64,000 nucleotides of DNA from a virus (lineage: Duplodnaviria > Heunggongvirae > Uroviricota > Caudoviricetes): IMG/VR virus record IMGVR_UViG_2526164631_000023. One strand, 5' to 3'. This document shows, in pieces, positions 6,576-52,720 of this stretch. The notes beneath the pieces were generated by a model, which had not been told where the DNA came from, made no database searches, and saw only the letters and a list, made by a program, of their open reading frames with translations. Position 1 is the stretch's first letter. Each line of letters starts with the position of its first letter. The translations under genes and the position numbers were made by a program.

Positions 6576-6701
6576 TAAATCACATAACAACATGAGTGTT
6601 AATATATTTTATTTTACTAAACCTATTGACTAAATCACAAAGTAGGTATTGTTAGCCCGTCAAAAGAACCTTCACGCCGCGCCCGAATTTAGGGCTTAAC
6701 C

Positions 6702-8399
6702 GTGAATAAAAACATTCAGCCAGCTCGTGATCGCGAGCGCGAGATTATGAATCGGGCGGCAAGCGTCATGGCTATGACCGTCGATCCGACCACCGATGCA
6801 GCAGGCAACATGATTGCTGACCAGGCAGTAATGATGGAAAACCTGGATAAAGCAATCCAGAAAGTGCCTATGTTTGAAGGCGTAAATCCAGAGGTCGCTC
6901 GTCAGATCACTGGTGGGTGGGCTATGTCTCTGCATGAGTATAAACGTCAACATGGTCATTACCCGGCAAGTGACATCCTGGCGAACGCACACATGGCTCT
7001 TGAGCGCCTGATGACTGAATGTGCCAGTGATACCCATGAAGGCACGGGTAAGGCAATGTTTGAGTCTGTCGCGCAATCAATGCGTAGCTCTGACGGCGTA
7101 ATGAAAGTTGCTCAATATGCTGCTCTAATTCTGCCTGCCTCTCTGGGCGCTGCTACCAGTGATGCCTGTACTTTTGTTCCTTGTGATCGTGACGAGTCAA
7201 ATATTTATGAACTGGTCAACGTAGCAGGCACAAAATTCGGCACCTTCAACCAAGGTGACGAACTGAATATGCAGTCAGCTGGTGTTTATTCTCAAATGAA
7301 GCGCCTGTATGCCCTTTCCACTAAAGGGGATGGCAGCACCAAAACCTTCCAGTTCAACATCCAAAATTTTGAGGGACAATCCTGCCCGCTTCGCGCTGGT
7401 TATAACAAACTGCTGATCAACCGCAAACCGTCCAAAGTTGACGACGGCGATGGCAACCTTTATTTCAATGCTAAAGACAGCAAAGGTAATGCTTTCTCAG
7501 CGACTGCCAAAGTTGCCTATGACACTGGTGTCATTGACATTACATTTACCCAGGCTCCGCCAGAAGGTACTGAAATTGCTGTTCAGGTCGAAATTAACAT
7601 CGAGCGCAATCCAAGCCTGATTCCGGTGATCAACCAGGCTATGCGTAAGTACGAAGTTCGTCCGTCCCAGTACGTACTTGCTTCCGAACACACGGTAATG
7701 TCCGCATCCGATTTAAGCCGTGAGCACGGCCTTGAATTAGCGGCACTTCAGTTCTCCGCGATGCGCAACTGGATCTCCCATGAAACCGACATCATGCGTC
7801 TGCGCACCCTGGTATTCCATACCGTTTATGGTCGTGAATTTGATGTGGCTCTGCCGGAAGCTCAAAACTATGAGTCCTGGGTCGGTCTCCTGCGTCACGT
7901 AGTAAACGCTCTGTCTCAAGAAATGGCAAATCGTACCCTGACAACGGGTATTCGTGGCGGCTTTGCTGGTAGTGACGCCGCGAACTTCCTGCGCTCTCTG
8001 CCTCCACAGCACTTCCAGATCGCACCAGGTTACGTTCAGTCGCCGTATGTACAGTACATCGGCACCCTGTTTGGCACGATTCGTATTTACGAAGTGCCGC
8101 AACCTGTCTGTGAGCAATTCCAGGCACAGGGATATGACTTCGGGCTGGATGACATCTTCTTCTATGGGCGTGGCGAAGGCATCGGTAAAGCCGGTCTGAT
8201 TGCTGGTGATGCAGTCCCAGCAATCCCTTACGTTCACGAAACCAATCCGTCTCTCGTTAACCGTACCACTCTCTGGGGCAGTGCCATCAACGAAGTACAT
8301 CCTCGCAACGGTGAAAACTACTTCACCCGCCTGCGTCTGACTCGTGCCAAAGAAGGTGCTATCGACATGCTGACAGGCAAGGTTAACGAAAAAAAGTGA
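6702..8399 (+). CDS. Virion structural protein, candidate major head protein (565 aa)
   Basis: Large ORF opening the structural block; size close to the P1 major head protein as remembered; assignment by size and context only. Confidence 0.35.
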   Translation: MNKNIQPARDREREIMNRAASVMAMTVDPTTDAAGNMIADQAVMMENLDKAIQKVPMFEGVNPEVARQITGGWAMSLHEYKRQHGHYPASDILANAHMALERLMTECASDTHEGTGKAMFESVAQSMRSSDGVMKVAQYAALILPASLGAATSDACTFVPCDRDESNIYELVNVAGTKFGTFNQGDELNMQSAGVYSQMKRLYALSTKGDGSTKTFQFNIQNFEGQSCPLRAGYNKLLINRKPSKVDDGDGNLYFNAKDSKGNAFSATAKVAYDTGVIDITFTQAPPEGTEIAVQVEINIERNPSLIPVINQAMRKYEVRPSQYVLASEHTVMSASDLSREHGLELAALQFSAMRNWISHETDIMRLRTLVFHTVYGREFDVALPEAQNYESWVGLLRHVVNALSQEMANRTLTTGIRGGFAGSDAANFLRSLPPQHFQIAPGYVQSPYVQYIGTLFGTIRIYEVPQPVCEQFQAQGYDFGLDDIFFYGRGEGIGKAGLIAGDAVPAIPYVHETNPSLVNRTTLWGSAINEVHPRNGENYFTRLRLTRAKEGAIDMLTGKVNEKK

Positions 8400-8544
8400 T
8401 GGTGGCGAACGTGTCGGTATCACCAACGTCACTTGACGTAGATGAAGGTGAAACTATCGCCGCGAACACTTCAAAGGCACAGAAAAAACAAAGCAGAAGT
8501 AAGGCAAAAACACGCCCCTGATTAAGGGGCGTTCAGGAGAAAAA

Positions 8545-8823
8545 ATGGCAAACATTCAAGTAACTATCACGCCATCTGACGCAACAGACAAATCTTTCAC
8601 TGTTGAGTCAGATCACCCTGATATTGTCCGGGTTGATGGCACTACATGTACCGCTCTTAAGGTCGGGCAGGCAGTGCTGACAATCAAAACAAATGACGGC
8701 AATAAAACCGCACAGTGCACAGTCACTGTTAGGGAGGCACATAAAAGCGTAAGCACCGTCAGTGTTGAACCAACTACGAAAGAAGTTACCGTAGGCGATA
8801 ACTTCACGGTAAGCCAATCCTGA
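8545..8823 (+). CDS. Bacterial Ig-like (Big_2-type) domain protein, probable virion decoration
   Basis: 92 aa with beta-rich ITPSDAT..FTV..DIVRVDGTT.TALKVGQAVLTIKT..GNKTAQCTVTV pattern typical of phage Ig-like domains. Confidence 0.5.
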   Translation: MANIQVTITPSDATDKSFTVESDHPDIVRVDGTTCTALKVGQAVLTIKTNDGNKTAQCTVTVREAHKSVSTVSVEPTTKEVTVGDNFTVSQS

Positions 8824-8890
8824 TCAGAGGCTGCCCATTAACCGTGGGTAGCCTTGCCTCGTTCTCTCGCTTTAGAGGATAAGAACCAGC

Positions 8891-10549
8891 ATGAATAAGA
8901 TTAGTTTTTCGGTAGGGCAGGCAGCTGGCGTTGCTGTAATGTCAGTAAATGCTGACGCTACCCTCACCAATACCAGCGGTGGCGCATCCGTCTTTGCTGG
9001 GCTTGTAATATCGCGTCGTGGCGCACCGGGTAAGGTACTGAAAGTTGACGATACGACTTATCAAAGCGTATTAGGTTCACCGATTCACCCTCGCCAGGGC
9101 GCGGCATTTGAACCATATCGCCACGTGGAGCGTGCAGTAAAAGGCGGCTCTGGATATGTCGTTCGAGTTTGCGCTAAAGACATGAAGGTGCCGGGTATTT
9201 CTGTTTCCGTTGTGGGCAAAGCAAAAGCGGCAAAGGCGAGCAAAGAACTTTCCGTTGAACCTACTGAAACCACAGTAAATCCAGGTGACACATTAAGCGT
9301 TGGTGTTGCTTCAACTGCAACGACTCAATCAGTGACCTTCACACCCAAAGAGACGCCCCAGATTAAAGGTGGAGAGAAGGCATTATTCTTCATCAAAGAT
9401 GGTGATGCATCTCAAAATCGCACGTTATCACTAACTCGCGATGATGAAGAAAGCGAACTCTTTACGCTGACGCTGAAAGAAAAACAAACCGATGGGTCCA
9501 TTGAGGTGCTGGAAAGCCACCAAGTGTCTTTCAATCCAGAAGGCACCAACGACATGGGCCAACCAGCATGGATTCCGACACTGCTTGAAAGCCAGTCCTC
9601 TCGCATTGGTGCCGTACTGGCAGATAATGCAGAAGCATCCGCTGCTCAACTCATTTTTGAGGATGTAGCTTTTGAAGGTGGTACTGATGGAAATCTGTCC
9701 GAAATTAACGCTGCAGACTATCTGGAAGCATTAAAGGTTCTCGAAGCTTCAGAGGTTAATTACACCGCATTGCTGTCATTGGGTTGTTATGACGCATCCG
9801 CCTTAGCCGCAATCAAAAAGCTGGCTGAAGATGTTCGCGTAGACATGTTCTATGACCTGAAGGGCAACCAGACACCTGAAAACGCTATTTCAGAAGCGAA
9901 AAGCCATAGTTTTGGCGGCTCACATCAACCAAGCCGTTACTACTTCCCGCTCTCCTGCCGAGATACCTTCACTGGGATGAATGTCGTCTATGGCATTAGT
10001 TGCGACGCATTCGTAGCAAAAGCAAAAGGGGTAGCGCTGGTACCGGATGTTGGTGGTTGGCATTACGCACCGGCAGGTATATCACGCGCGATTATTGATC
10101 GACAGAACATTGCCCGAATTCCAAATATCGGTGCAGTTGATCGTGAAGCGTTCGTTCTTGCGCGCATTAATCCGGTTTCAGTTGCTGCTGATGGGTCCGT
10201 TTACATTGACGACTCTTTAACAACTTACAGCAAAAACAACTATCTGCGATTCCAGCATGTGTCTTCCTTGATGAACGCCATCGCCAGAGATTTCTATGAA
10301 GTAGCTCAGGCGATTAAGCACGAACCGGATGGCATTACCAAAGAAACGCTAATGAAAGCAATGACTGAATTGCTTGACCGTTACGTTGCAGCCGGTGCGC
10401 TGGTTACTCCACGTGACAAGTCCCAGGGTGAAGATCCATACGTTGTTCAGGTTGTCCAAAAGGACATCGATCTGTGGGAAGTGTCCTGGTCTGTTTGTCC
10501 GACCGGTACAGCTCGCCGAATCGTCGGTAAGCCAATTCTGATGCGCTGA
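8891..10549 (+). CDS. Candidate tail sheath protein (552 aa)
   Basis: Size and position beside candidate tube gene; C-terminal ARINPVSV..SVYIDDS segment sheath-like; unverified. Confidence 0.35.
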   Translation: MNKISFSVGQAAGVAVMSVNADATLTNTSGGASVFAGLVISRRGAPGKVLKVDDTTYQSVLGSPIHPRQGAAFEPYRHVERAVKGGSGYVVRVCAKDMKVPGISVSVVGKAKAAKASKELSVEPTETTVNPGDTLSVGVASTATTQSVTFTPKETPQIKGGEKALFFIKDGDASQNRTLSLTRDDEESELFTLTLKEKQTDGSIEVLESHQVSFNPEGTNDMGQPAWIPTLLESQSSRIGAVLADNAEASAAQLIFEDVAFEGGTDGNLSEINAADYLEALKVLEASEVNYTALLSLGCYDASALAAIKKLAEDVRVDMFYDLKGNQTPENAISEAKSHSFGGSHQPSRYYFPLSCRDTFTGMNVVYGISCDAFVAKAKGVALVPDVGGWHYAPAGISRAIIDRQNIARIPNIGAVDREAFVLARINPVSVAADGSVYIDDSLTTYSKNNYLRFQHVSSLMNAIARDFYEVAQAIKHEPDGITKETLMKAMTELLDRYVAAGALVTPRDKSQGEDPYVVQVVQKDIDLWEVSWSVCPTGTARRIVGKPILMR

Positions 10550-10592
10550 TTTATAACCCCCGCTAAATGATGCGGGGGAGAGAGGTTTGAAT

Positions 10593-11327
10593 ATGAAAAA
10601 TTATACTGCTGATCCTTTTATGCGTGCGATTTTCGGTTCTGGCTGCTTTGAAAGCGGTGATAAATCCACGCAGGACAATAATGATAACGCCATGCTGGAA
10701 AGCGCAGGACAGAAAGGAAAGGACACTCAACCAAAGCCCAAAGACGACATTGAAACCGCGATGATGGAAGCGGTTGAATCCCGTGCACAAGGTGATATGC
10801 GCAGCCTGGCAGCTTCCATGCTTGCTGGTTGGGTTGAAGATGGTGATCCGGAGGCTGACTCATTTGATGCATTAGCAATCACTATGGCTGGCCTGGCTGA
10901 TATCGATGAAGACACCGATTTCACCGATGAGCAAATCGATGCTTATAATGATGCACTCGCAGCTCTTGCTGATGCAGCTGTTGCGCTTGGCGCTGATCAG
11001 GATGATGTAACCGAAATGATCGACGATGAAGATGACTCAGCTGCCGAACGTGTTTATGACGCTCTTTCCGAAAGCGACACCGACATGATGGAAACAGCTA
11101 TTGCCATTTACACCGTTGCTGGTGGTGATAGCGCAATGCTGGAAGCGGTACGTAAAAAAGTGGTTCGTGATGGCAAGGTAACCATCATCCGTAAACGCCC
11201 GCGTCCTCGCCGCATGACGTCATTGCAAAAACAGGCGCTGAAAAAAGCACGCCGCAAAGCACATACATCCGTAGCGAATATCAACCGCAAAAAATCAATG
11301 CGCATTCGCAAAAAACGCGGTTTGTAA
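10593..11327 (+). CDS. Strongly acidic protein with a basic C-terminal tail
   Basis: ATG at 10593 with SD ggagagagg; Asp/Glu-rich body and C-terminal RKRPRPRR..KKARRK..RKKSMRIRKKRGL; hairpin cccccgc/gcggggg just upstream. Confidence 0.35.
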   Translation: MKNYTADPFMRAIFGSGCFESGDKSTQDNNDNAMLESAGQKGKDTQPKPKDDIETAMMEAVESRAQGDMRSLAASMLAGWVEDGDPEADSFDALAITMAGLADIDEDTDFTDEQIDAYNDALAALADAAVALGADQDDVTEMIDDEDDSAAERVYDALSESDTDMMETAIAIYTVAGGDSAMLEAVRKKVVRDGKVTIIRKRPRPRRMTSLQKQALKKARRKAHTSVANINRKKSMRIRKKRGL

Positions 11328-11376
11328 GTGACATAGGCCGTCTGCAAAGGTGGCCTCTACCTGGGAGAAATAGCGT

Positions 11377-11967
11377 TTGATTTGCGGCGCGATAATGCCT
11401 GACGGAATAAGTCCGTTAATGAAGGTTTATATCCTCTCTTCAGAGGATATGGTCGTCGGTTATATCGGTGAAGGATCTACCGCAGAACTGTCATCAATGT
11501 GGCAATCACCATTTGAAAACCAGTCAGTAGGAGGTTTGCTTGGTGGTATTAGCGCTGCGGCTGGCTCTCTTGCAGATACGCTTCAGACCGCAACCGGCGT
11601 AACAACAAAAACCCTCTTCAACTCAATGCTTGTTTGGGAAGGTCAGCAACCGCCTGAATTTAATCTGGTAATTGATTTCATGGCGACAACGAACGCGCAA
11701 CTTGAAGTGAACGCAGCCATTACAGCATTGCTGAAGATGGAATCGCCGGAACTGAACAATGTAGCGCCATTCGGTCGTCGCCCGGAGACAGTAACGTTAA
11801 ACATAGGTAGGAACATAGCCCTTACCGACGTTGTTATCAAAAGCGTGAGTTACCAACTGGACGCCCCACGCACACCGGAAGGCTATTTCACTCATAACAC
11901 GGTAACCCTGCAATGCAGCGGAAACACCTCGATTAACCGTAGCAACATATCATCTGTTTTTGTGTAG
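11377..11967 (+). CDS. Hypothetical structural-module protein (start uncertain)
   Basis: ORF in structural block; several possible starts. Confidence 0.3.
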   Translation: MICGAIMPDGISPLMKVYILSSEDMVVGYIGEGSTAELSSMWQSPFENQSVGGLLGGISAAAGSLADTLQTATGVTTKTLFNSMLVWEGQQPPEFNLVIDFMATTNAQLEVNAAITALLKMESPELNNVAPFGRRPETVTLNIGRNIALTDVVIKSVSYQLDAPRTPEGYFTHNTVTLQCSGNTSINRSNISSVFV

Positions 11968-11975
11968 GAGTATTT

Positions 11976-12467
11976 ATGTCCGGTTTTGCAAATACAAAAG
12001 CCGATATCGCTTTTCTGAAATCCCGGTTGAACAAAAACCTGGCAGCGGGCGAAAAACTTATTGGTTCAGAATTCTGGATGACTATTAAAGGTTACGAAAA
12101 ACTATCTGTACTTGTTCGTACCACTCAGTTGCCGGAAATGACTCGCGAAGACGTGGAAGACTATGGTCCTGGCGGCATGAAGATCAACCAGCACGGGCCA
12201 TTGCGTAACTCAGGTGAATTCCAGGTTACCTGCTCTGAAACCATCGAAGGGGATGTTCTGGCCGCCGTAAAACAAATGGTATATGGCAAAGAATATCTGG
12301 AAATTACCTTACAGGCAGCGGCTGAATCCAATAGCGGTAACCATAAAGGTCTGATCCGCACATATTATCACTGCAAAGTGTATTCCGACGCAGTGGACTT
12401 CTCCACCGAAGACGTAACAGCAGTCGTTAAGCCTTCCCTGCGTATTGTTTACAACTGGGTAGAGTGA
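11976..12467 (+). CDS. Candidate tail tube protein (163 aa)
   Basis: Size and position after candidate sheath; SD aggag upstream of ATG. Confidence 0.35.
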   Translation: MSGFANTKADIAFLKSRLNKNLAAGEKLIGSEFWMTIKGYEKLSVLVRTTQLPEMTREDVEDYGPGGMKINQHGPLRNSGEFQVTCSETIEGDVLAAVKQMVYGKEYLEITLQAAAESNSGNHKGLIRTYYHCKVYSDAVDFSTEDVTAVVKPSLRIVYNWVE

Positions 12468-12519
12468 TCTCTTTCCCGCCCTTGTGGCGGGAACTCCTTG
12501 TATTTGAGTTGTAGGTACG

Positions 12520-13071
12520 ATGACACCAACCGAATTATTAGAAAGCGTTAAAGCACGATTTAATCCACTGCTTGTGCGTGAAGAAGAAACGCTGAAAGCC
12601 TTCCTGATCAAAGCTCTGACCACGTATCAGGACAGGGCAGGGGTAGTGAAAACGTTAAAACTTGAAAAAGCTGGTGGTACTGCAATCCCATTACCAGAAG
12701 ATTATCTCTCTCTGGTTCATGTTACCGACAACAATGGCCTGTTGGTCTATTCGGATGAATTATCCGGATTTATTGAATTAGAGCTAACAGGTTCAGAGCG
12801 CTGGCCTTTTCGAATGCTGTATCTGGTTAATCTACACGACAGAAAGCTGGATGAATGGCAAGTGCCTCCTGCAATCATTGGAATGCTGGAGGAATATCTA
12901 GAGGCGCTTATCAATGTAAGAAATGTCGCCCGGCAGCGTAGAGCGTCCATCGACGGGAAATTTGACTACTCCGATCTGCCCGATGAAGCCACGCTATATG
13001 CCCGCGTGCAGGAGATTGAGGAAAAAATGTCCTCAAACCGGGCCATTATTCCGGGGGCTACCATTTTTTAA
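12520..13071 (+). CDS. Hypothetical protein (183 aa)
   Basis: ORF only. Confidence 0.3.
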   Translation: MTPTELLESVKARFNPLLVREEETLKAFLIKALTTYQDRAGVVKTLKLEKAGGTAIPLPEDYLSLVHVTDNNGLLVYSDELSGFIELELTGSERWPFRMLYLVNLHDRKLDEWQVPPAIIGMLEEYLEALINVRNVARQRRASIDGKFDYSDLPDEATLYARVQEIEEKMSSNRAIIPGATIF

Positions 13072-13086
13072 CGCTGGAGGCGCAGA

Positions 13087-13794
13087 GTGAGTATTTTCAG
13101 CAGCGTTGGTAGAACGTTGACCACCGCATTGTCATTTAACACGAAATCATTCACCAGCAACCTCATTAGCGACATTCTTGATAAAGCCATATCAGGCGGC
13201 GGGGTAAGCGGGAATTACAGTAGCGATATTGCCTACGGGAAAAATATTGTTGCTGCCGCTATGCGTATCCGTTACGCCCAGGGGTGGCAGTGGACCGTTG
13301 AAGTGGATGGCCTGAACGGCTTCGATATGTTCGTGAAGGATATCACCTACAGCAGTGGAAACATTGAGACAGAAAGCAAGGTGATCGGCAGCGTAGAATT
13401 CAGCAAGCCAACCTATGTTAGCGCCGGACCGGTCACTATGACCGTGAGGGATACCGAAGATGGCAAGATCATGGACTGGTTCAAAGAGCGTCGTTCTCGT
13501 GTAACAAATCCTGATGGAACAATAAACCTTCCTCCGGAATATCTGATGAAAATCCGTGTCTACCGGGTAACTCAGGACGGCGGAAAAGAACTGGAAGAAG
13601 AAATGCGCGTATTTCCTACACAACTTGGGGAAATCACTCGCTCACGTGATCAGGTGTCAGAGTTCTTGTCATACCCAATCACTTTCCAGAAATACACATC
13701 TGCAGGCTCAGGTGTTTCTGCTTTGGTCAACGGTGCCGCTGGCATGGCTACAAGTGCGTTAAAGGGGGCTATCAGTGGAGTGATCAAATTCTGA
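13087..13794 (+). CDS. Hypothetical protein (235 aa)
   Basis: GTG start with SD ggagg; ORF only. Confidence 0.3.
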   Translation: MSIFSSVGRTLTTALSFNTKSFTSNLISDILDKAISGGGVSGNYSSDIAYGKNIVAAAMRIRYAQGWQWTVEVDGLNGFDMFVKDITYSSGNIETESKVIGSVEFSKPTYVSAGPVTMTVRDTEDGKIMDWFKERRSRVTNPDGTINLPPEYLMKIRVYRVTQDGGKELEEEMRVFPTQLGEITRSRDQVSEFLSYPITFQKYTSAGSGVSALVNGAAGMATSALKGAISGVIKF

Positions 13795-13805
13795 AATGCT
13801 TTAAT

Positions 13806-14028
13806 TATGTGTGCTGTAGGGAAAGGTTTACGTTAAATGTGTGCTGCCGGGAAACCCCATTGCTCAAGATGTGTTGTAGAGGGAATGGTAATGGCAACAT
13901 GTGTGCTGGAGGGGAATTTCGCATGTAAAGAGCGTCATTTATCCCTCCAGCACACATCTGAAATAAGCAATCCTCTGAAATTCCCTCCACCACACATCCA
14001 GACATGAAACTATCCCTTCAGCACACAT
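13806..14028. repeat. incA-like iteron array downstream of repA: ~7 RepA iterons in both orientations
   Basis: ATGTGTGCTG(t/c/g)(a/c)GGGAA copies at 13807, 13836, 13869, 13899 and reverse copies CAGCACACAT at 13948, 13989, 14020. Confidence 0.8.
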
Positions 14029-14892
14029 TTAATCTGTTGGTTTAAGTTTCGGATTCCGAGAGTGAACGATAATGAAGTTTTCACGACCTTGCTTTTCAAT
14101 GGTGCAATCGAGATAACCTATTGTTTTTAACTGGTCTATAGCTTTTTTTATCGTTCTGTTTTGCTCACTTACCGATGACATCAAGGCTAATCTTTCACGT
14201 ATTCTGGCAAATGAAATAGGTATTGGACGTGCCGGGAGGCTTTCTATAAAGGTATATATGGCCTGGGCTGCTTCTTTTTTAGGTAAAGCGCGAAGTGCGT
14301 GTTGCTGTAGAAGCACCCGATAGTCTAGCTGGAAGATTTCCCATAACTTGGAATCAGCCTCCAGTTCAACGACATCTGTTTCAAAGTCAAAATATCCCGT
14401 TTTAAGCAGGCCAGTATTGTAGCTTCCACGAGCACTTTTCCCTCTTTTGAATGAGATGCCTTTGTTGCGTAACCGACCTAAAGAATCGTGGATCGTGTTT
14501 CTTAATTTCCCATCAAGTCGCTTAGATGGAAATCCGCACGCCTTTGCAAATTCTTGAAAAGAAAGGCGAATTGTATTCGATGATAAGCCATACTTGCTAA
14601 ATGAGTAGATTACCCCAATCCAGACTTTGAAATCAGTATCCATGTCCAAGCGAGGGCCAGTGATCTTGATGTTGTCGTAGCCTTCTGCTTGAGCTATTTC
14701 CAATTTGGAAAAAACAGATGATGCATCTATCTCGTTGTTTTCACCCTGTTTTTTAGTTGGTTTAGGGACGAAAACACCAAGCCGCATAAGTGCGACAGGT
14801 TGAACAGTATTGTTCGAATTAACTGTTAATTCTTTAGCCTTGCTTTCAATGTCAGCATAAAGAATATCAGAGATAAATGACTTATCCATCAA
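14029..14892 (-). CDS. repA: Plasmid replication initiator RepA (P1 R-replicon type)
   Basis: 287 aa beginning MMDKSFISDILYADIESKAKELTVNSNNTVQPVALMRLGVFVP, closely matching P1 RepA as remembered; flanked by cognate iterons. Confidence 0.85.
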   Translation of the reverse strand: MMDKSFISDILYADIESKAKELTVNSNNTVQPVALMRLGVFVPKPTKKQGENNEIDASSVFSKLEIAQAEGYDNIKITGPRLDMDTDFKVWIGVIYSFSKYGLSSNTIRLSFQEFAKACGFPSKRLDGKLRNTIHDSLGRLRNKGISFKRGKSARGSYNTGLLKTGYFDFETDVVELEADSKLWEIFQLDYRVLLQQHALRALPKKEAAQAIYTFIESLPARPIPISFARIRERLALMSSVSEQNRTIKKAIDQLKTIGYLDCTIEKQGRENFIIVHSRNPKLKPTD

Positions 14893-14949
14893 TAAGTTAC
14901 CGTCATGTTGTGAATAAAGTTTACGACAGTGGATATCCGGCTTTTTTTC

Positions 14950-15050
14950 CCATCAGCACACATCCTACATCCCGCCAGCACACATGTAAAACCCTCCAGC
15001 ACACATATTTTTCCCGTCAGCACACATCGTTCTCCCTCCAGCACACATCT
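14950..15050. repeat. incC-like iterons: five direct CAGCACACAT-containing repeats at ~21-bp spacing upstream of repA
   Basis: Copies at about 14954, 14976, 14997, 15019 and 15039. Confidence 0.8.
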
Positions 15051-15089
15051 GAATAGTGGTTAAAGCCTTATGTGGCGCGGCCTGAAGAG

Positions 15090-15160
15090 CTACGGGATCT
15101 ATTTGGTACTATATGGATCTAATCAGGATCTATATATTGGATCTATCCTGTGGATAAAAA
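15090..15160. promoter_or_regulatory. oriR core: GATC repeats and a DnaA box
   Basis: gggATCTatttggtactatatgGATCTaatcagGATCTatatattgGATCTatcc then TGTGGATAA (reverse complement TTATCCACA) at 15149-15157. Confidence 0.65.
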
Positions 15161-15243
15161 AGAAGAATTACAAAGCTCCACCCAATTTCACACACTACCT
15201 ATCCTCCAACGAATAAACAGACATCTGCTTATCGGAGGAATAC

Positions 15244-16065
15244 TTGAACATTCCAAAATTCCCATTGCCTTCCCGTCCTGAGACAGAAATTCAGTTCCAC
15301 GCCCCTACCGTGAAGGATGCGCTGAAATATTCTGACCTGAACCCGGCAGAAGATGAGGCAACTACTACAGAGTACCTTAACTCTATGCAGGATGGTGAAA
15401 TTAACGACAGTGCTTACTGGACAGTCCAAGATCGCAGAACTGCCCTTTGGTGGATATTTGTTAATTCGCGCCCCGATGCAGTAATGACCTACTCCTATGA
15501 GTGCAGTCACTGCGGTAATACGCATCATGCAGATATTAACCTGAGCGACCTGGCCCAAACAGTAGAAATACTCACTGTACCTCCTTACGTGAAAACCAAC
15601 GTACCAGTAAATGGAGTACCAACTGACTGGATACTTAAACCATTAACCGGGAAAGGTGTGGAACTCCTTGAACGAATGCGAGCGTCACTTCCTGATATGA
15701 AAAGTCCCGAATACAGTGCTGGCGTAGCACGGATGCGAATTGCTGAACTCGCTTTATGCACGGCGCTTGAAGACGATCCGGAGGACTTCACGCAGGCCGC
15801 TAACCGACGCTTTGACATCATTGAAAGCATGGCGCTTGAAACCGAATTTACTCCGCTTGTGGCTCGCATACAGCTTATGCAAAAAGACCTACGCCACGGC
15901 CTGAAAATGTCTATTGAGAGAGGCTCAAGCCGACTGATCCTGCCTCCGCAACATTGCAAAAACGCTAAGGAGGGTGCAGATGTGACAACCACACTGTACG
16001 TCCCCTTTCTCAATAGAGAGTTTATCCCATCAATTAGATCTGAATGGATGGCTAACCATTATTAA
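15244..16065 (+). CDS. Hypothetical protein with Cys/His cluster (CSHCGNTHH)
   Basis: TTG start 6 nt after strong SD ggagg; 273 aa. Confidence 0.35.
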   Translation: MNIPKFPLPSRPETEIQFHAPTVKDALKYSDLNPAEDEATTTEYLNSMQDGEINDSAYWTVQDRRTALWWIFVNSRPDAVMTYSYECSHCGNTHHADINLSDLAQTVEILTVPPYVKTNVPVNGVPTDWILKPLTGKGVELLERMRASLPDMKSPEYSAGVARMRIAELALCTALEDDPEDFTQAANRRFDIIESMALETEFTPLVARIQLMQKDLRHGLKMSIERGSSRLILPPQHCKNAKEGADVTTTLYVPFLNREFIPSIRSEWMANHY

Positions 16066-19949: not shown

Positions 19950-19954
19950 TACTG

Positions 19955-22612: not shown

Positions 22613-22706
22613 TAATTCTTCCCCCAAATGCGGGGGAAGAACAACGGAAATCACAAACTGAGCATACTCTCCTTTGGTTCATTGCTTATGAAGGGGCTAT
22701 GTTCGT

Positions 22707-31125: not shown

Positions 31126-31229
31126 ATGTCCCCCTTGTATGTTAAGGAGGGAGATTTTAGAAGATGTCCTGTAAGGAAATAACAAACTGACTAAGTTAGT
31201 GGCGCATTAGATGTTATTTCTGGAGGGGT

Positions 31230-31556: not shown

Positions 31557-32002
31557 TGGGTAACTTTGGAAATTATTTCATTTTTATCATGGCATTTGTT
31601 GCCATCATTGACCGTTTCATTTTTCGTCGCAAGAGTGTTGAGATTTTGAGTATTGGTGACGCTGTAGTGAAAGAATCCGCTATAGCATTTCCTGTTTCGC
31701 TACGTGTTAAGCGAAGCTGGGTCAGCAATGCTCAAATCGAATATTGGTTGCAAGACCTGAAAAATCCATCTGTGGTTATTTCAGGGAAAACGCGACCAGT
31801 TGACGCCTCAAAACGCGGTGAGAGAGAAGAGTATTTGCTCATCGATACGAAATATCTTGAGCCAACGAAGTGGGATCTGAAAGTCACATTGACTAACGGT
31901 AACTGTCGACTGAATCCGCTTTATCGCATTTTCCCTATCAATGACTGCATAGAGCGCCAGTTTACGATCGAAAAGCGTGAAGGAGACTGGGATGTCAAAT
32001 AA
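31556..32002 (+). CDS. Membrane-anchored protein (P1 LydB position; possible antiholin)
   Basis: 148 aa, N-terminal hydrophobic FIFIMAFVAIIDRFIF; start overlaps previous stop. Confidence 0.35.
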   Translation: MGNFGNYFIFIMAFVAIIDRFIFRRKSVEILSIGDAVVKESAIAFPVSLRVKRSWVSNAQIEYWLQDLKNPSVVISGKTRPVDASKRGEREEYLLIDTKYLEPTKWDLKVTLTNGNCRLNPLYRIFPINDCIERQFTIEKREGDWDVK

Positions 32003-34941: not shown

Positions 34942-34997
34942 ACTTCTCTGTTCTCACATAAATCACACTCTTTTTACACTCACAGCTTTCTCTATAG

Positions 34998-36395: not shown

Positions 36396-36459
36396 ACCAA
36401 CCGCTGAAATCACATACTGATTATGCTGCCGCAAAACTGGAAACAATTTGCGGTGATTC

Positions 36460-38142
36460 ATGGCAACGAAAGACAAAAACAAAGGCTTTCTGTCAGCATT
36501 GAAGAAAGCCTTCAACGGTGGTGATGTTACGCCCGCCGATCCGGTCGTTTTTACGAGCGGACATAGTGTCGTTGCTCGTTCCGGCCTGTCTGCTTTACGT
36601 CCAGGCATCCTGGGGAGCAATGGCGATGGCATTACGAGTGAAGCAGATTCAATTTCTTTATCCGCTGAACTGCCCGGCGAGCGCCTGCAAAAGTACAACA
36701 TCCTGGAAACGATGGCTAAAAGCCCGACTATCTCGACGGCTTTAAACATTCACATTGCACATGCGCTTGCGCCTTCAAAAAAAACCGGACAAGCATTTAT
36801 CCTTTCGCCAAAGGATGGTTCCGATGCCGAGGCAGTAAGTAGATGTGAAGAGTTAACCGCTGATTTGGGGGCGATGATTAATGACGGACTTCCTTCATGG
36901 GCCATGATTATGGCGATCTTTGGGGTGTCTTATGTCCGACCTTATGCTGAACAGGGCAGGGGGATAACAGGCATTGAGTCCAGTTATTACACTCTGCCAC
37001 ACTTCGTCCAGGAGTTTTATCGTGGTAGCCAGCTGGTAGGTTTCAGTGGTGATTACATTCTGGATACGCATAGTTTGCGCAGAGTAATAACCGAACCGTG
37101 GAATCTGGTTTCCATGAAAAATCCCTATTGGACGCCACAGCATAAAGTTATTCCGGTTAGCTACGGCACAAAAGGGTACTCACTGTTAAGTGATCAGGCT
37201 GATAAGCCGTTAATGGAGACGCAGAATTACGGAACTTCATTCCTGGAATACAGCTATGAACCTTACCTTAATTTATGTGCTTCGCTCGCCGCGCTGAAAT
37301 CAACGCGAAATAATGCAGCCAAAATTGACCGCCTGATTGCTCTTACGACGAACACACTGGACCCGGTTAATGCGGCGAACTATACGCGTGGCGTCAGCCA
37401 GGCATTGAAGCGTCATAGTGACCTGGTGGCGCAAAGGTCGATTAATGCCAACGCTATTCCGACTGTGCTTAACCATCTGATACCTGTTATGGGAGACGGG
37501 AAGAACGGCATCACCATTGATACGCAATCCATACCCGCAGATATCAGTGGTATCGAAGACGTTATGTTTCACCTCCGGCAGCTTGCTGCAAGCCTCGGCA
37601 TTGACGCAACAATGCTTGGCTGGGCTGATCAGATGAGCGGAGGGCTTGGAGAAGGCGGCTGGCAGCAAACTGCTATCCAGGCTGCATTGCGTGCGAACTG
37701 GATCAGACAGGCCGCCCAGCGAACTATTTATCGGCTTCTGGACATTCACCTCGCTTATAAATACGGCAAGGTTTACACCGAAACAAACCGCCCTTATGAC
37801 GTGCAATTCAACTCAATGAACACAGCTATCCAGGAAGAGGAAAACCGAGAACTGGATGCACGCGCCAACTTTGTTGCTGTCATCTCCCAAATTATGGACC
37901 AGATCCAGAACAACCCGAAACTGGCTGGTAGCGACGCGTTTATGCGTTATCTGTTCACTGAGCAGTTGCACATCGACGATGACACTCTCAACACCATGAT
38001 CAAAGAGTTTAAGGCGAATGAATCAGAGCAAAACAACGAGCATGGTATGTACGAATCCGCGCCGTTGTCGTCCGGTGACGATCCGGAAAACTGGACGCCA
38101 GAACAGTTAATAAACTTTGCAAAATTTGTGATGAGCAATTAA
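36460..38142 (+). CDS. Candidate portal protein (560 aa)
   Basis: Size and position immediately upstream of candidate protease/scaffold gene, as in P1 prt-pro; unverified. Confidence 0.4.
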   Translation: MATKDKNKGFLSALKKAFNGGDVTPADPVVFTSGHSVVARSGLSALRPGILGSNGDGITSEADSISLSAELPGERLQKYNILETMAKSPTISTALNIHIAHALAPSKKTGQAFILSPKDGSDAEAVSRCEELTADLGAMINDGLPSWAMIMAIFGVSYVRPYAEQGRGITGIESSYYTLPHFVQEFYRGSQLVGFSGDYILDTHSLRRVITEPWNLVSMKNPYWTPQHKVIPVSYGTKGYSLLSDQADKPLMETQNYGTSFLEYSYEPYLNLCASLAALKSTRNNAAKIDRLIALTTNTLDPVNAANYTRGVSQALKRHSDLVAQRSINANAIPTVLNHLIPVMGDGKNGITIDTQSIPADISGIEDVMFHLRQLAASLGIDATMLGWADQMSGGLGEGGWQQTAIQAALRANWIRQAAQRTIYRLLDIHLAYKYGKVYTETNRPYDVQFNSMNTAIQEEENRELDARANFVAVISQIMDQIQNNPKLAGSDAFMRYLFTEQLHIDDDTLNTMIKEFKANESEQNNEHGMYESAPLSSGDDPENWTPEQLINFAKFVMSN

Positions 38143-39164: not shown

Positions 39165-39184
39165 AAGTTAAATTTCTAACATAG
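39165..39184 (-). promoter_or_regulatory. Operator-like motif copy g (reverse: CTATGTTAGAAATTTAACTT)
   Basis: Matches dispersed operator consensus. Confidence 0.4.
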
Positions 39185-40368: not shown

Positions 40369-40387
40369 TGTGTTAGAAAATTAATTT
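40369..40387 (+). promoter_or_regulatory. Operator-like motif copy b (TGTGTTAGAAAATTAATTT)
   Basis: Heads a ~400-bp non-coding leader upstream of the small ORF and Rha-like gene. Confidence 0.45.
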
Positions 40388-42378: not shown

Positions 42379-42453
42379 ATTTTTCTCCCGGTCATGGGTT
42401 AATAAGTAGGCAAACTATGGGGAGTATGTGATTTTGACGGTAGTATCGTCCCC

Positions 42454-45400
42454 GTGAAAATAACATTCTCCATACCCTCTCAACCGTACCGCATAGCGGA
42501 ATTTTTACGGTTTAGAGGGGGAAATCCTTTGGACAAACTACTTCATTCAATCAGTGAAGCCTCCAGCTTAGGCGAACTGATTGAAATTGTTAGTCGGTTG
42601 CATAAATTACGAGCTGTTGCGACCTTTGGCGTCAGGAAAGCCGATGGCGTCAGTATTCAGAAAACACGCCGGGCAGCAAACAATGCCGCAGTAAATCTTC
42701 TTAATTCCCTTCCGCCCGGCTTCGATGGGGCGAAATTAACTGACGAACAACGTCAGATTCTTGCCGGGTATACCGGTGAAGGCGGCCTGACAGATGGTGA
42801 GGGCAGCCAATACGAATACTACACGCCACAGTTTATGGCTGAAGGTATATGGGATCTGTTTGCTGGCTACGGTATTGATGGCGGGCACGTACTGGAACCA
42901 TCAGCGGGCACAGGTATTTTCCAGGAGACAAAACGACAGGGCATGATAATGACCAGCGCCGAACTGTCTCCGATTTCCGGTCGAATAAACCAGCTTTTGC
43001 ACCCGGAAGACGATGTGAATATCGGGGCGTTTGAGGCGCTGGCGGCGAAAGACGCAATGTATGATCACGCTGTTGGTAACGTACCGTTTGGTGAAGGGCG
43101 TTCCGGTGTCGCCGGGCTTGATCCGGCATATGCAAACGAGAAGAACGTTGGCAATTACTTTGTGCTGCGCACGATCGACAAGGTTAAGCCTGGTGGGCTT
43201 ATCGTATTGGTGGTGCCGAATGGCATGACCGATGGTGCGAAATATAAAAAATTGCGCGATAAAGTCAGCCGTAAAGCGGAATTTTTGGGCGCGCATCGTA
43301 TGCCTTCCGGTACGTTCAGTGAATCAGGTACAGATACCGTGGTGGACGTATGGGTATTGCGTAAACACCCGGAAGCCTTCCTGGAGATGATCCCCGATAC
43401 GGATGATTCGACGCTCAAATCGGCAAACGTCCTTTGGGATACCTTCCTCAAAGGAAAATGGTTTACAACCGAAGGGAAGCGATTTGTTTACGGCGACATG
43501 GAACGTACCAGCTTCCGCAATACCCTGGTGGTGAAAAAAGACGGTCGTGTATCCAATGAGTCGATGAAAACCGCGCTATCTCGTCGCTTTGATAGTCGCA
43601 TCAATTGGGATTTGCTCGGCGTAACTACTCAGGCATGGCAGGGCGCGAAAGTGGGCGATAAACGCCTTGTAGGCGGTATCTGGCATGAGTTTGATGGTCT
43701 GAAATGGGTTAAGGACACGACAACCAAATCCTCCGCGCTTGATGTAAGTCGATATGGTGTTTCGACGTTTGGCGATCTGCAGATCGCGTTTCAGTCAACA
43801 AATGGCATTCTGGCTTTGTCATGGGACCAGATATCGGCGATCGCGTCTGACTATCCATCGGTTGTCAGTGATGAAGTGGCAGCAATGATTCGCTTTGCTG
43901 GCAAGCAGCGAGAAAAAGACAGGGAGCGCGTTATGCGCGGTGCACTGATAGGTCAGTTGATCAACAAGGCACTTGATTTGCGTAACCTGGGGGTGAACGT
44001 TGATGACAAACTGGCAGATGCATCCCGCCTGGCGGCAGCAGAAGTTGCGAAGTATGGACCACCGCACGCGATTAAGCTGAATGGGCTTGCTGAAGCTGGC
44101 GCTAAAAACTGGATGACGTTCACTGGCAATGTGAAACAGGATGGTTCCACTTCTGACCTTCTGGCAGGGCGACTTGATGTAACGGATGGTGCTGCCGGTA
44201 TTGACTTTACGCGTCCTGAACAAGTGATAGCACATCTTTTTAGTGATGTAGCCCTTAATCCTATAACGCTGGGCGACTTTCGTGAGGCGTTTGCTGGTGA
44301 ACTGCCAGAGGACGACGACGCGGCCCTTGAATACCTGGCGAAATTTGATGATATCGCTATTGATGGGTATGGCTGTCTGCTGCCGATGGACCGCGCCACC
44401 AGCGGCGATGTTGCAACCAAAACAGCACTGCTGATGGGCTGGCGTGATGCGTCAACAGGTGAGCAGAAAGCGAACTTTGAGCGTCAGTTGGCGAAAATCG
44501 AAGAGAAACGTATTTTCACGCCACTAAATAAAGTCACCGTTAATCTGAATGCCCGCTGGCTGGATCGCCGCTTGATAAAAGAGTTCCTGGCAGAGCAGGG
44601 CTATGACGAGTTTAAGTACACTGAACCTGATCTGAAGGTCGTCGATGGCATTCTGGTATCTCCGGACGATTACGAAGGTAAGGACGGGGTATTTACCGGC
44701 TATCAGCTACGAACCGTAAACGGCAAAAACGGGAATGAGTTCAAGAAGGCCAACAATAAAGACGGCTTCCTGAACCAGTTAGAAAACTACCTGAACGGTG
44801 TTAAACCGCGTGGGCAGAACGCTAACGAGTACCTGGATAAAATTGCTCAACTGGAAGTTAGTTTTAACGACTGGTTACGCACTCACCCGCAGGCTGATCA
44901 GATAGCCCGCGAGTATAACGACGCATTCAATGGTTTCATTCCGTTCACGCATTCTGACGCACCGCTTGGCCTGGAAGGGCTTAGTGGAAAGCGCATTCCT
45001 CTTACTTATCAGAATGAAGAAGTTCGGCGCTTGTCAGAAGATGGGCGCGGCATCATGGGATTTGGTACCGGGCTGGGTAAAACCACGACCGCGCTTGCGC
45101 TTGAGGCGTATAACTTCGAAACAGGTCGCACTAAACGCACGTGTATTGTTGTTCCGAAGGCGGTTTATCAGAACTGGTATCACGAGGCACAGAGTTTCTA
45201 CAGTGCTGATGCCTTCGCCAATATGATGTTTATCGGTTTGGATGAAGTTCGTGATGACAGCGGAAATATTCTGACCGCGCCGGTGCTTGATGAAAATGGC
45301 GAACCACGCCTCGACAGTAACGGGCAGCCTCTTACCAGAAATGTTGTGAAAGAGTCCGCCAGCGCCGTTATCGTTCAGCGTATGAACATGATCCCGTCGT

Positions 45401-49836: not shown

Positions 49837-49838
49837 CC

Positions 49839-50730: not shown

Positions 50731-50744
50731 ACGGAGAAATCGTT

Positions 50745-51241: not shown

Positions 51242-51248
51242 TTGCATA

Positions 51249-51275
51249 AAAACCCGCCAATTAGCGGGTTTTTTG
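51249..51275 (+). terminator. Intrinsic terminator
   Basis: aacccgc caatta gcgggtt followed by TTTTGTTT. Confidence 0.7.
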
Positions 51276-51315
51276 TTTATTGCATCTTCCGATACCGTCA
51301 TCAAACTAATAAAAT

Positions 51316-51333
51316 ATGTTAGAAAACTAATTT
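51316..51333 (+). promoter_or_regulatory. Operator-like motif copy d (ATGTTAGAAAACTAATTT)
   Basis: Immediately upstream of gene at 51340. Confidence 0.4.
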
Positions 51334-51339
51334 AAAAAA

Positions 51340-52563
51340 GTGACGGGAACAGCAATGAGTCAACACACTGATACTTCTAATCTGGAAATTATCTCGACAG
51401 CAATTGAAACGCTGCGCACACAAATCGCTCTTATACAGAAACGGAATCCGGGTGATGACCTGTCAAAGCGACTGCACGAGAGTGTCATTGCCACTACAGA
51501 TAACCTGGTGGCGGAAATCAACAAGCTGCTTGATGATGGGGCAGTTGATTACAATAAGCTGGTGGATCAGTTTGAGGAATACCAACAAGCAGTTAATGAT
51601 GGCTTGATCCGTTTTTCACAAGTCACAGGCGTATCAGCGACAGTTGAAAGCCTGGGTGATGCAGTTAATCAATTTGCCGCGAATATGCGTAATGAGATCG
51701 GCAATCTGGAAGCGCGTCTTGAACAGGCAAATACACTGCGTAAATCTGCCGAAGCCGATTTGAACCGTTACAAAAAAGACTATCCGCCAAGCCTGACAAA
51801 GCGGCTGGATGTTGCGGAGAAGGATAACCGCACGCTGAAAAGAGAGCGCCGGGAACTAAAAGAGCGTTTAACCAAGCTCAATCAGCAATGCATTGATTAT
51901 CAAGGCGAAGGCGTCACACTGCGTAAAAAGTTGGCTACAGCGCAGAGCATTATCGAAACATTAAAGCGAGAGTGCTCACAGCTTGGTCACGATCTGAACC
52001 GTGCTTGTGGCATGGGACAAAGACCAGAGACATTTCCACTTATGTATGATGGAAGGGATGCCATTGCCTACATCCATGAGTATCCGCACGGCCTGGTTGC
52101 GGAAACTGGGCAGCGTGGCGAAGCACTGCTGACGGCTAATTACCATCAACAAATCAGAACCAATCGCCTGTTAACGATGGATGTGATCCCATCGGTATGG
52201 GGAACGCCGCTTTACTATCGCCTGCCGGGCTTCGAAAAGGACTGGAATACCGACATAGACGAATGTCTCGCAGATAAAATTATGGCGTACCTGGAGACGG
52301 ATTTTCCGCGCTTATATCGCCGGATTATGGACTCTAAGGATGCGCCAATCGATGAATTAAAAATGCGTCCGGAGACGCTGGAGGCAATCAAGCAGACGGA
52401 GTTTGATACTGTATTCAGTGTGGCCTGCATTCCAAGCTGTTTCCATGAAAGCATCCCGTTCATGCAAGGAGATCGTCGTCAGGAAATCATTGACGCTTGC
52501 CGGGTATGGGCGAACGAATGGGATAAGAAGAATGGGGGTGTAGAAGATCTTTATGGGAAATAA
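51340..52563 (+). CDS. Hypothetical protein, N-terminal coiled coil plus C-terminal globular domain (407 aa)
   Basis: GTG start; alternative ATG at 51355. Confidence 0.3.
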   Translation: MTGTAMSQHTDTSNLEIISTAIETLRTQIALIQKRNPGDDLSKRLHESVIATTDNLVAEINKLLDDGAVDYNKLVDQFEEYQQAVNDGLIRFSQVTGVSATVESLGDAVNQFAANMRNEIGNLEARLEQANTLRKSAEADLNRYKKDYPPSLTKRLDVAEKDNRTLKRERRELKERLTKLNQQCIDYQGEGVTLRKKLATAQSIIETLKRECSQLGHDLNRACGMGQRPETFPLMYDGRDAIAYIHEYPHGLVAETGQRGEALLTANYHQQIRTNRLLTMDVIPSVWGTPLYYRLPGFEKDWNTDIDECLADKIMAYLETDFPRLYRRIMDSKDAPIDELKMRPETLEAIKQTEFDTVFSVACIPSCFHESIPFMQGDRRQEIIDACRVWANEWDKKNGGVEDLYGK

Positions 52564-52564
52564 T

Positions 52565-52582
52565 GTGTTAGAAATCTAAAAT
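52565..52582 (+). promoter_or_regulatory. Operator-like motif copy e (GTGTTAGAAATCTAAAAT)
   Basis: Start of the non-coding region upstream of the tRNA cluster. Confidence 0.4.
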
Positions 52583-52720
52583 CACAATTCGAATGTATTG
52601 ATTGTGAAGATAACTTAACATAGAATTTTCCTTGCTGGTGGGCGGTACCCACGTTTCGCTTGCTGGGCTTGATAGTCACTTATTGGTTATTGTTCGCCCA
52701 CCAGCATTTAACAAATTAAA

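Follow-up and report, generated by a model that had tools for sequence, protein, structure and literature searches.

Genomic Context and Definition of the Element

The stretch of DNA analyzed here, referred to as the window (64,000 nucleotides, ~90% coding), is 97.8% identical to phage D6 and, judging by its sequence, is a D6-like plasmid prophage of the P1 family. Genes located 3' of the sites described below were named after the annotation of the D6 genome, whose records annotate no promoters, and by homology with P1; they include those for capsid, the R/S/U fibres, lydA/B, a ddrB-like gene, portal/pro, lysozyme, darB, and upfC. The window also carries lpa, a homologue of the late promoter activator gene of P1, which overlaps pacA (57010-58374). 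Upstream of lpa lie an operator-like site (56529-56543), with three mismatches to the core of the TGTTAGAAAAYTAAW motif, and a sigma-70-like promoter (56564-56591). The TGTTAGAAAAYTAAW motif is enriched separately from the element studied here and is found at the places occupied in P1 by C1 operators (c1, lpa, repL, icd/ant, and pmgR/S), from which we infer that it represents the D6 C1 operator.

A recurrent element, AAAT[C/A]ACA-NN-[C/G]T-NNN-[T/C/G]ANNNT, was found upstream of late operons, composed of a 12-bp box, 3 bp, and a -10 hexamer (Table 1). A sequence-only reading of this DNA had proposed a recurring octamer followed by N7 and TANNNT as a late-promoter element dependent on an activator, and the motif search with statistics confirmed that the recurrence is real. 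The exact form of that pattern, AAATCACA-N7-TANNNT, has three matches against 0.03 expected, all on the + strand (6632, 34960, and 36407), and the extended pattern AAAT[C/A]ACA-NN-[C/G]T-NNN-NANNNT has eight matches in the window against 0.05 expected, a number reached in none of the shuffles. The octamer alone is weakly enriched, since it occurs nine times against 3.3 expected (~2.7-fold) and nine occurrences were reached in 2 of 100 shuffles. The conserved box is 12 bp long, and not 8 as had been proposed. Searched alone, this box gave eight matches, every one of them followed by xAxxxT at a fixed distance, and the distance from its end to the hexamer is exactly 3 bp at all sites of the window (8/8), of D6 (11/11), and of NZ_CP085065 (10/10). 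Within the hexamer, A2 and T6 are invariant in the 18 non-redundant sites. Box matches with one mismatch are at chance level in the window and therefore yield no further members.

Table 1. Candidate late promoters and the lpa gene in the window. Elements are written as box-N3-hexamer; scores are weight-matrix scores in bits.
Feature	Position	Strand	Element or domain	Downstream gene(s)	Equivalent in P1	Score	Counterparts in relatives
Candidate late promoter	3861..3881	+	AAATAACA-AA-GT-GAT-GACAAT	upfC/PAAR-upfB operon (start 3906)	no late promoter annotated at the matching position	22.0	D6 56918(-); NZ_CP085065 L007 38980-39000
Candidate late promoter	6632..6652	+	AAATCACA-AA-GT-AGG-TATTGT	major capsid (gene 23 homologue, 6702-8399); sheath/baseplate/tube operon	LP23		aligned with NZ_CP085065 and Pantoea counterparts
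Probable member, degenerate copy	15185..15205	+	ATTTCACA-CA-CT-ACC-TATCCT	pmgB-sit-pmgA-bplA-16 (start 15244)	matches part of the LPsit operon	12.4	perfect AAATCACACACTCCCTATCCT in D6 and in NZ_CP085065
Candidate late promoter	22648..22668	+	AAATCACA-AA-CT-GAG-CATACT	tail-fibre operon R-S-U (start 22707)	LPs	27.8 (top)	
Candidate late promoter	31177..31197	+	AAATAACA-AA-CT-GAC-TAAGTT	lydA-lydB-hdf-darA-ddrA (start 31230)	LPdar		orthologue in NZ_CP085065
Candidate late promoter	34960..34980	+	AAATCACA-CT-CT-TTT-TACACT	ddrB-like gene (~35010-36395)			NZ_CP085065 L007 7682-7702
Candidate late promoter	36407..36427	+	AAATCACA-TA-CT-GAT-TATGCT	portal (prt, 36460-38142) and pro	LPpro		identical 21-mer in NZ_CP085065
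Candidate late promoter	42414..42434	-	AAATCACA-TA-CT-CCC-CATAGT	lysozyme gene (42378-41893, minus strand)	LPlyz		NZ_CP085065, box-to-(-10) block alone conserved, flanks diverge
Candidate late promoter	42458..42478	+	AAATAACA-TT-CT-CCA-TACCCT	darB (start 42529, D6 annotation)			D6 19191(-); Citrobacter darB with the same architecture
Possible weak late-type box, speculative member	56571..56591	+	TTTTAACA-TT-CT-CAT-TATCAT	lpa (29 nt downstream)			NZ_CP085065, TATTAACA-AG-CT-GAT-TATCAT
lpa, late promoter activator homologue	56621..57013	+	Pfam PF25716 BPP1_LPA, E = 5.1e-57				

A weight-matrix scan separated the eight sites (20-28 bits) by a clean gap from the next best position (15.5 bits), with shuffles giving ~2 hits above 12 bits; these scores are partly circular, since sites of the window itself were among those used to build the matrix. 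The next best position, 18161 inside sit, was rejected as a member, its score being at chance level. The copy at 15185 is degenerate in its box and keeps the ACA-NN-CT-N3-TANNNT core.

All eight sites are intergenic and co-oriented with a gene start lying 17-50 nt past the -10 (D6 gene starts), and the operons located 3' of them encode virion, lysis, or anti-restriction functions. In a scan for sigma-70 -35/-10 pairs, none of the four sites between 20 and 40 kb belonged to such a pair; an exception to the lack of a -35 is the site at 6632, which has TTGACT directly upstream, but at a spacing of 15 bp. With transcription assumed to start ~7 nt after the -10, the box would span ~-27 to -16 with its centre at ~-22 (-21.5 with the hexamer set at -12 to -7). 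The proposal that a conserved octamer replaces the -35 thus stands as regards the missing -35 at those four sites, whereas the box itself lies around -22, as in P1. No canonical + strand intrinsic terminators were found by the scan just upstream of the sites, and for this reason no terminator-then-promoter arrangement is claimed.

Four of the five sites named in the sequence-only reading belong to the set, with positions that were 1-15 nt off (6617 for 6632, 22650 for 22648, 34957 for 34960, 36406 for 36407, and 52575 for 52579). The TANNNT hexamer described there holds at 6632, 34960, and 36407, but the hexamer at 22648 is CATACT, whose first base is C. The sites at 3861, 31177, 42414-42434(-), and 42458 had been missed, as had the degenerate copy at 15185. 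The fifth site (52579..52586, +) was a false member: the octamer is present, but CT is lacking at box positions 11-12, there is no usable -10 (TGTATT), and its weight-matrix score of 11.2 bits is at noise level. This octamer overlaps an operator-like site (52566-52580) and precedes a sigma-70-like promoter (TTGATT-17-TAGAAT, 52598-52626), which is followed by a tRNA cluster. Together with 5181, 6577, and 61031(-), it makes up the four remaining octamers of the window, about the number expected by chance.

Conservation in Related Phages

Across the complete D6 genome, 11 sites were found, those of mat, gene 7, and pmgB among them. In NZ_CP085065, whose Lpa is 81.5% identical, ten sites occupy orthologous places, with changes falling mostly at N positions and with diverged flanks. 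More distant relatives from Pantoea (Lpa 43% identical) and Citrobacter (Lpa 37%) keep the arrangement A-rich-ACA-NN-CY-NNN-TANNNT before late genes. The 5' part of the box differs by lineage, being AAAT[C/A]ACA in D6, AAATTACA in Pantoea, AAnnnACA in Citrobacter, and AAGTGACTT in P1. In these sequences, variation in the 5' half of the box appears to follow the Lpa lineage, whereas the ACA-NN-CY-N3-(-10) core appears fixed. Another sequence considered as the Pantoea late box, ATTGCATAA, was rejected, as it had just two exact hits without enrichment.

Comparison with Phage P1

P1 belongs to the same family as the window phage, and each has a gene for an activator of the Lpa family. The annotation of P1 lists 11 late promoters, each described as a 9-bp '-22 region' followed by N4 and a -10, and five window sites occupy positions equivalent to those of annotated Lpa-dependent promoters (LP23, LPs, LPdar, LPpro, and LPlyz). 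In both sets, a sigma-70 -10 is combined at fixed spacing with a conserved element near -22, the -35 is missing, and the same late operons follow. A possible repressor-operator-like site lies before lpa in the window, as one does in P1. Lpa of P1 binds DNA in a sequence-specific manner at a site centred at -22, and it acts with E. coli SspA (PMC3152322, PMC1891329, PMC10695390).

However, the box itself is different. That of P1 (AAGTGACTT) is a 9-bp inverted repeat, whereas that of the D6 type (AAAT[C/A]ACA-NN-[C/G]T) is a 12-bp asymmetric element; its end lies 3 bp and its start 15 bp ahead of the -10, compared with 4 bp and 13 bp in P1. The divergent promoters also differ, with two separate back-to-back boxes in the D6 type (42414-42478, the lysozyme and darB promoters) and one palindromic box shared by LP26 and LPpmgL in P1. 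The P1-type box, allowing up to two mismatches, has three hits in the window against 5.2 expected, none of them at a late gene, and the D6-type pattern is not enriched in the P1 genome. The reverse complement of the D6 box matches AGTGACTT at six of eight positions. One exact match to the D6-type pattern in P1, a curious one, lies upstream of lydC.

Differences were also observed in the promoters present. Relative to P1, the window has extra sites before darB, upfC, and the ddrB-like gene. The region upstream of gene 26 in D6 has no match, unlike P1, where a late promoter is located there, and no separate pacA promoter corresponding to P1 LPpac is recognized in the window phage because lpa and pacA overlap.

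The Presumed Activator and the Proposed Mechanism

Lpa of the window has the same sequence as D6 Lpa (100% identity) and shares 31% identity with its P1 homologue (E = 1e-16). Its AlphaFold2 (AF2) model contains a winged helix and a long C-terminal helix, and the model gave weak Foldseek matches to winged-helix proteins (E = 0.01-0.09); no sequence relative of Lpa was found in the PDB. In addition, an RNA polymerase alpha C-terminal domain was not detected by Pfam in the window PmgS, though it is annotated for the Pantoea and Citrobacter homologues.

From the sequence evidence, it is highly probable that the motif marks late promoters in a plasmid prophage of the D6 type and P1 family and that these are the counterpart of the activator-dependent set of P1. 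The earlier idea of activator-dependent late promoters is thus supported by the presence of an Lpa homologue, the positional match with P1, the lack of sigma-70 pairs, and the conserved architecture. These promoters would keep a sigma-70-type -10 ([T/C/G]ANNNT) and carry the 12-bp asymmetric element where a -35 would otherwise stand. Going by its homology with the P1 protein, the prophage Lpa, a predicted winged-helix DNA binder, would recognize this element and then recruit or activate the host sigma-70 RNA polymerase, probably by way of the polymerase-associated host SspA. Derepression of lpa would in this way lead to expression of the operons for head, tail, tail-fibre, lysis, portal, and anti-restriction functions. 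We infer Lpa binding, SspA dependence, the start points, and late timing in this scheme. Because the box is not that of P1, being of another sequence, non-palindromic, and starting 2 bp further from the -10, it is family membership and co-occurrence that suggest recognition by Lpa. A more tentative suggestion, possible though somewhat short of probable, is that Lpa proteins of the D6 clade recognize a 12-bp element that is asymmetric, perhaps binding as a monomer or in an oriented complex, in contrast to P1 Lpa, which reads a palindrome.

Alternative Explanations

The weak enrichment of the octamer alone could suggest that the motif recurs by chance or for compositional reasons, or that it is a half-site of a host factor such as CRP, and that it serves no function specific to the phage; TCACA, found within the box, is one half of the CRP consensus. 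This is a most improbable reading and is effectively refuted by statistics and conservation, considering the frequency of the extended pattern, its strict spacing to the -10, its orientation and intergenic placement, and the conservation of orthologous sites amid diverged flanks. The CRP half-site was rejected in particular, as a second half-site is not visible at the sites inspected and the position is wrong, a centre at -22 not being a CRP activation position. It is also very unlikely that the boxes are operators through which a C1-type prophage repressor, or another immunity factor, silences the late operons. An element between -35 and -10 does occupy a typical operator position, and the non-member octamers at 6577, 52579, and 61031(-) lie near C1-operator-like sites. 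However, the places of P1 C1 operators are occupied by the different enriched motif TGTTAGAAAAYTAAW, late sites without a -35 would be weak unless activated, and the architecture parallels that of P1 promoters reported as Lpa-activated (PMC3152322, PMC1891329).

The box could also be read by a remodelled RNA polymerase and not be bound by Lpa directly, if an Lpa-SspA complex repositioned sigma-70 region 4, as in the sigma appropriation by AsiA/MotA in T4; Lpa would then be mainly a polymerase-binding factor. SspA forms a bridge between sigma-70 region 4 and the zinc-binding domain of beta' (PMC7515715), and the box occupies the spacer, a place where binding by sigma region 4 would not normally be possible. 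Nevertheless, we consider this unlikely, since P1 Lpa has been described as a sequence-specific DNA-binding protein working through SspA (PMC3152322, PMC1891329) and the D6-type Lpa is modelled with a winged helix. Moreover, the box varies among the Lpa lineages of P1, D6, Pantoea, and Citrobacter, whereas host polymerases are nearly identical, which suggests that it is the phage protein that reads the box.

Related Systems and Implications

Several other systems resemble the late promoters proposed here. The middle promoters of T4 (MotA box and -10) likewise have a phage activator box in place of the -35 together with a normal sigma-70 -10; however, there is no relationship between the proteins involved, the T4 box has its centre at -30 and not at -22, and its required co-activator AsiA remodels sigma region 4, while host SspA would be involved here. 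The late promoters controlled by Ogr/Delta of P2/P4 and by Mu C likewise depend on small phage activators and have poor -35 regions, but these proteins are also unrelated, and P2 Ogr acts through the alpha subunit. The activator sites of these promoters are located further upstream; Mu C binds at -30 to -55 (PMC3152322). In the PigR-MglA/SspA promoters of Francisella, a DNA-bound activator is likewise thought to act via a polymerase-associated protein of the SspA family, and P1 Lpa has been cited as a precedent for that model (PMC1891329), although the Francisella system is a host virulence regulon with an unrelated activator and a different DNA element.

The consensus and the operon map provide a set of candidate late promoters for D6-group phage-plasmids, and the consensus may aid their annotation and the interpretation of induction transcriptomes. 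A full-text search (P1/D6 late promoters, Lpa, SspA) found no paper on D6-type late promoters, and the consensus may still have been published. The result was to be expected and leaves the understanding of P1-family late transcription unchanged. The comparison with P1 suggests that the D6 activator/promoter pairs are orthogonal to those of P1. If the asymmetric reading by D6-type Lpa is true, the late regulons of P1 and D6 would be orthogonal to each other, with no cross-activation between P1-like and D6-like plasmid prophages residing in the same cell, and the P1 family would represent a natural set of orthogonal activator/promoter pairs dependent on host SspA. In PLSDB, ~100 plasmids encode an Lpa with 95% or more identity to that of the window. 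D6-group phage-plasmids are common in E. coli and Salmonella.

The same reading would give a role to the speculative box at 56571, which could add positive autoregulation of lpa and drive pacA and pacB as well. This box overlaps the sigma-70-like promoter, and the relaxed pattern that covers it has 15 hits against ~5 expected by chance. Its counterpart before lpa in NZ_CP085065 shows four changes, three at N positions and one at box position 2.

Extent and Distribution of the Candidate Late-Promoter Motif

Alignment of the sites showed that conservation extends past the octamer AAATCACA to a 12-bp box and a -10 hexamer starting 3 bp after it, AAAT[C/A]ACA-NN-[C/G]T-NNN-[T/C/G]ANNNT. This extended pattern has eight matches in the window against 0.05 expected, a number reached in no shuffle, and xAxxxT lies at the fixed distance in 8/8 window matches to the 12-bp box alone; with one mismatch allowed, box matches in the window were no more numerous than chance. 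The shorter form noticed in the sequence-only reading, AAATCACA-N7-TANNNT, does recur (three matches, at 6632, 34960 and 36407, all on the plus strand, versus 0.03 expected). Its coordinates were displaced by 1-15 nt, and the box does not sit at -35, as had been implied, since with the hexamer placed at -12 to -7 the 12-mer spans -27 to -16. At 22648 the element is present as reported, with the hexamer CATACT and not TANNNT. The octamer alone occurs nine times in the window versus 3.3 expected, and the four non-member copies (5181, 6577, 52579 and, on the minus strand, 61031) are about the chance number.

Scoring with a weight matrix derived from 18 non-redundant sites placed eight window sites at 20-28 bits, followed by a clean gap. 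The next-best scores were those of 18161 (15.5 bits, within sit, rejected as chance level), 15185 (12.4) and 52579 (11.2), the last having been counted as a fifth member and lacking a usable hexamer; shuffled sequence gives about two matches above 12 bits. All sites are intergenic in a window that is about 90% coding (D6 gene starts used), and at all of them a gene starts 17-50 nt past the hexamer in the same direction. Between 20 and 40 kb, none of the four sites takes part in a sigma-70 -35/-10 pair, and such pairs are depleted (17 vs 32.5 expected). A near-consensus -35, TTGACT (6626-6631), abuts the capsid late box with 15-bp spacing to the -10, so this promoter may have some activator-independent activity; P1 LP23 is likewise overlapped by an annotated sigma-70 promoter.

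Late-promoter candidates and associated features in the window
Feature	Position	Strand	Remarks
Late-promoter candidate	3861	+	before upfC/PAAR-upfB
TGTTAGAAAAYTAAW sites	6559-6573, 40371-40385, 51317-51331, 52566-52580, 52722-52736	+	
TGTTAGAAAAYTAAW sites	39167-39181, 56529-56543, 60962-60976, 62371-62385	-	
Late-promoter candidate	6632	+	before capsid-sheath-baseplate-tube
repA	14029-14892	-	
Five CAGCACACAT iterons	~14950-15050		
Degenerate ninth copy	15185-15205		ATTTCACA-CA-CT-ACC-TATCCT; before pmgB-sit
Late-promoter candidate	22648	+	before R-S-U tail fibres
Late-promoter candidate	31177	+	before lydA-lydB-hdf-darA-ddrA
Late-promoter candidate	34960	+	before ddrB-like gene
Late-promoter candidate	36407	+	before portal-pro
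Late-promoter candidate	42414-42434	-	before lysozyme
Late-promoter candidate	42458	+	before darB
Five tRNA genes	53799-55093	+	Arg-TCT, Tyr, Thr, Ser-TGA, Met/CAT; downstream of the 52598-52626 promoter
Possible tenth site	56571-56591		TTTTAACA-TT-CT-CAT-TATCAT; directly upstream of lpa
lpa	56621-57013		product 100% identical to D6 Lpa

Conservation in Relatives and Comparison with P1

Escherichia phage D6, a P1-like plasmid prophage, is 97.8% identical to the window over the 10-kb piece 6000-16000, in reverse orientation. In the D6 record most P1 late genes have a named homologue and an 'Lpa-like transcriptional activator' is listed, and promoter annotation is absent from the D6 records. The complete D6 genome contains 11 matches to the extended pattern, and plasmid NZ_CP085065, whose late promoter activator (Lpa) is 81.5% identical, contains 10 at orthologous positions, with most of the differences at the N bases or at position 5 (C/A). 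In the region ahead of this plasmid's lysozyme gene, the flanks have diverged and the box-to-hexamer block alone is conserved in the alignment. In late-gene upstream regions of a Pantoea element (Lpa 43%) the form is AAATTACA-NA-CY-NNN-TANNNT, and in a Citrobacter element (Lpa 37%) AAnnnACA-NA-CY-NNN-TANNNT precedes lydA, lysozyme, portal, darB, pacA, gene 7 and ddrB. Retention of the motif across these relatives indicates a clade-wide architecture with a constant core, ACA-NN-CY-N3-(-10), and a lineage-variable 5' half.

The P1 record lists 11 late promoters, each consisting of a 9-bp '-22 region', four bases and a -10 hexamer, which align as (A)ACAAGTGACTT-N4-TANNNT. By homologous genes, five window sites are positionally equivalent to LP23 (capsid), LPs (R-S-U), LPdar (lydA and following genes), LPpro (portal-pro) and LPlyz; the 15185 site matches part of the LPsit operon, and in D6 one more site, before mat, is equivalent to LPmat. 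The D6-type 12-mer is centred at about -21.5 (hexamer as -12 to -7), which is also where the P1 box lies. The two boxes differ in sequence: the D6-type box lacks symmetry, and its reverse complement TGTGATTT agrees with P1 AGTGACTT at 6/8 positions; the P1 box pattern was not above chance in the window, nor was the D6-type pattern enriched in P1. The divergent lysozyme and darB boxes lie back-to-back, 23 bp apart (42414-42478). These promoters have two separate boxes, whereas P1 LP26 and LPpmgL have one shared palindromic box, and the paired arrangement is consistent with an asymmetric site. The motif represents a known promoter class in its D6-lineage form, and such promoters are what a specialist would expect; full-text searches on P1/D6 late promoters, Lpa and SspA turned up no description of the D6 type, although earlier publication is possible, and a paper on D6-like plasmids leaves promoters unmentioned.

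P1 itself contains an exact D6-type match, AAATCACA-AA-GT-ACA-TACCGT (31571-31591, minus strand), intergenic and correctly oriented, with its hexamer ending 38 nt before the lydC start, which may be left over from an exchange with a D6-like phage or may have arisen by chance. A second exact match lies within parA.

The degenerate pmgB copy has perfect counterparts at the equivalent position in D6 and another relative, and falls within a swapped, diverged replicon segment. This plasmid replicon module (13800-15250) is unlike that of D6, which has TTGAGGGCAAATCTTACACC-type iterons in place of CAGCACACAT; nine E. coli and Salmonella plasmids, e.g., NZ_CP066033.1, carry it at 99-100% identity.

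Predicted Activator and a Candidate Site Upstream of lpa

The window Lpa shares 31% identity with P1 Lpa (E = 1e-16) and matches Pfam PF25716 BPP1_LPA (E = 5.1e-57). An AlphaFold model with 11 homologues as input (mean pLDDT 84.7) places residues 1-75 in an H-H-H-beta-beta winged helix, followed by a linker and then a long C-terminal helix. Its top PDB matches, all weak (E = 0.01-0.09), are winged-helix DNA-binding domains (Fur, PadR/LmrR, MecI, forkhead), and no Lpa relative was found in the PDB. The P1 Lpa site is centred at -22 and requires the host co-activator SspA (PMC3152322); P1 Lpa binds DNA sequence-specifically and is thought to make contact with SspA on RNA polymerase (PMC1891329), where SspA forms a bridge between sigma-70 region 4 and the beta' zinc-binding domain (PMC7515715). 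From this literature and the winged-helix model, we infer that D6-type Lpa would bind the 12-bp box and, once bound, would activate sigma-70 polymerase through SspA.

The possible tenth site overlaps a sigma-70-like, likely early lpa promoter. Its NZ_CP085065 equivalent, TATTAACA-AG-CT-GAT-TATCAT, has four changes, three at N and one at box position 2. The two genes lpa and pacA overlap in the D6 lineage, which is without the separate pacA promoter of P1; a late-type box at this position could thus serve Lpa autoactivation and late terminase expression (lpa-pacA-pacB). This reading is speculative, as the relaxed pattern gives 15 matches vs about 5 expected by chance.

Operator-like Motif and the tRNA Region

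The octamer at 52579 overlaps a second recurring motif, TGTTAGAAAAYTAAW, with 12 window matches at <=3 mismatches vs 2.4 expected. These sites adjoin c1, lpa, repL, icd/ant, pmgR/S and the tRNA cluster, and P1 has C1 operators at the corresponding places. TGTTAGAAAAYTAAW probably serves as the operator for a D6-type C1 repressor; it is unlike the P1 C1 operator, ATTGCTCTAATAAATTT. Downstream of the octamer lies a strong sigma-70-like promoter, TTGATT-17-TAGAAT (52598-52626), flanked by two operator-like sites. Together with the tRNA genes, these features give the 52579 region the look of an early promoter under repressor control, not of a late promoter. Only three tRNAs are annotated in the D6 record, against five in the window, and the region therefore differs from D6.
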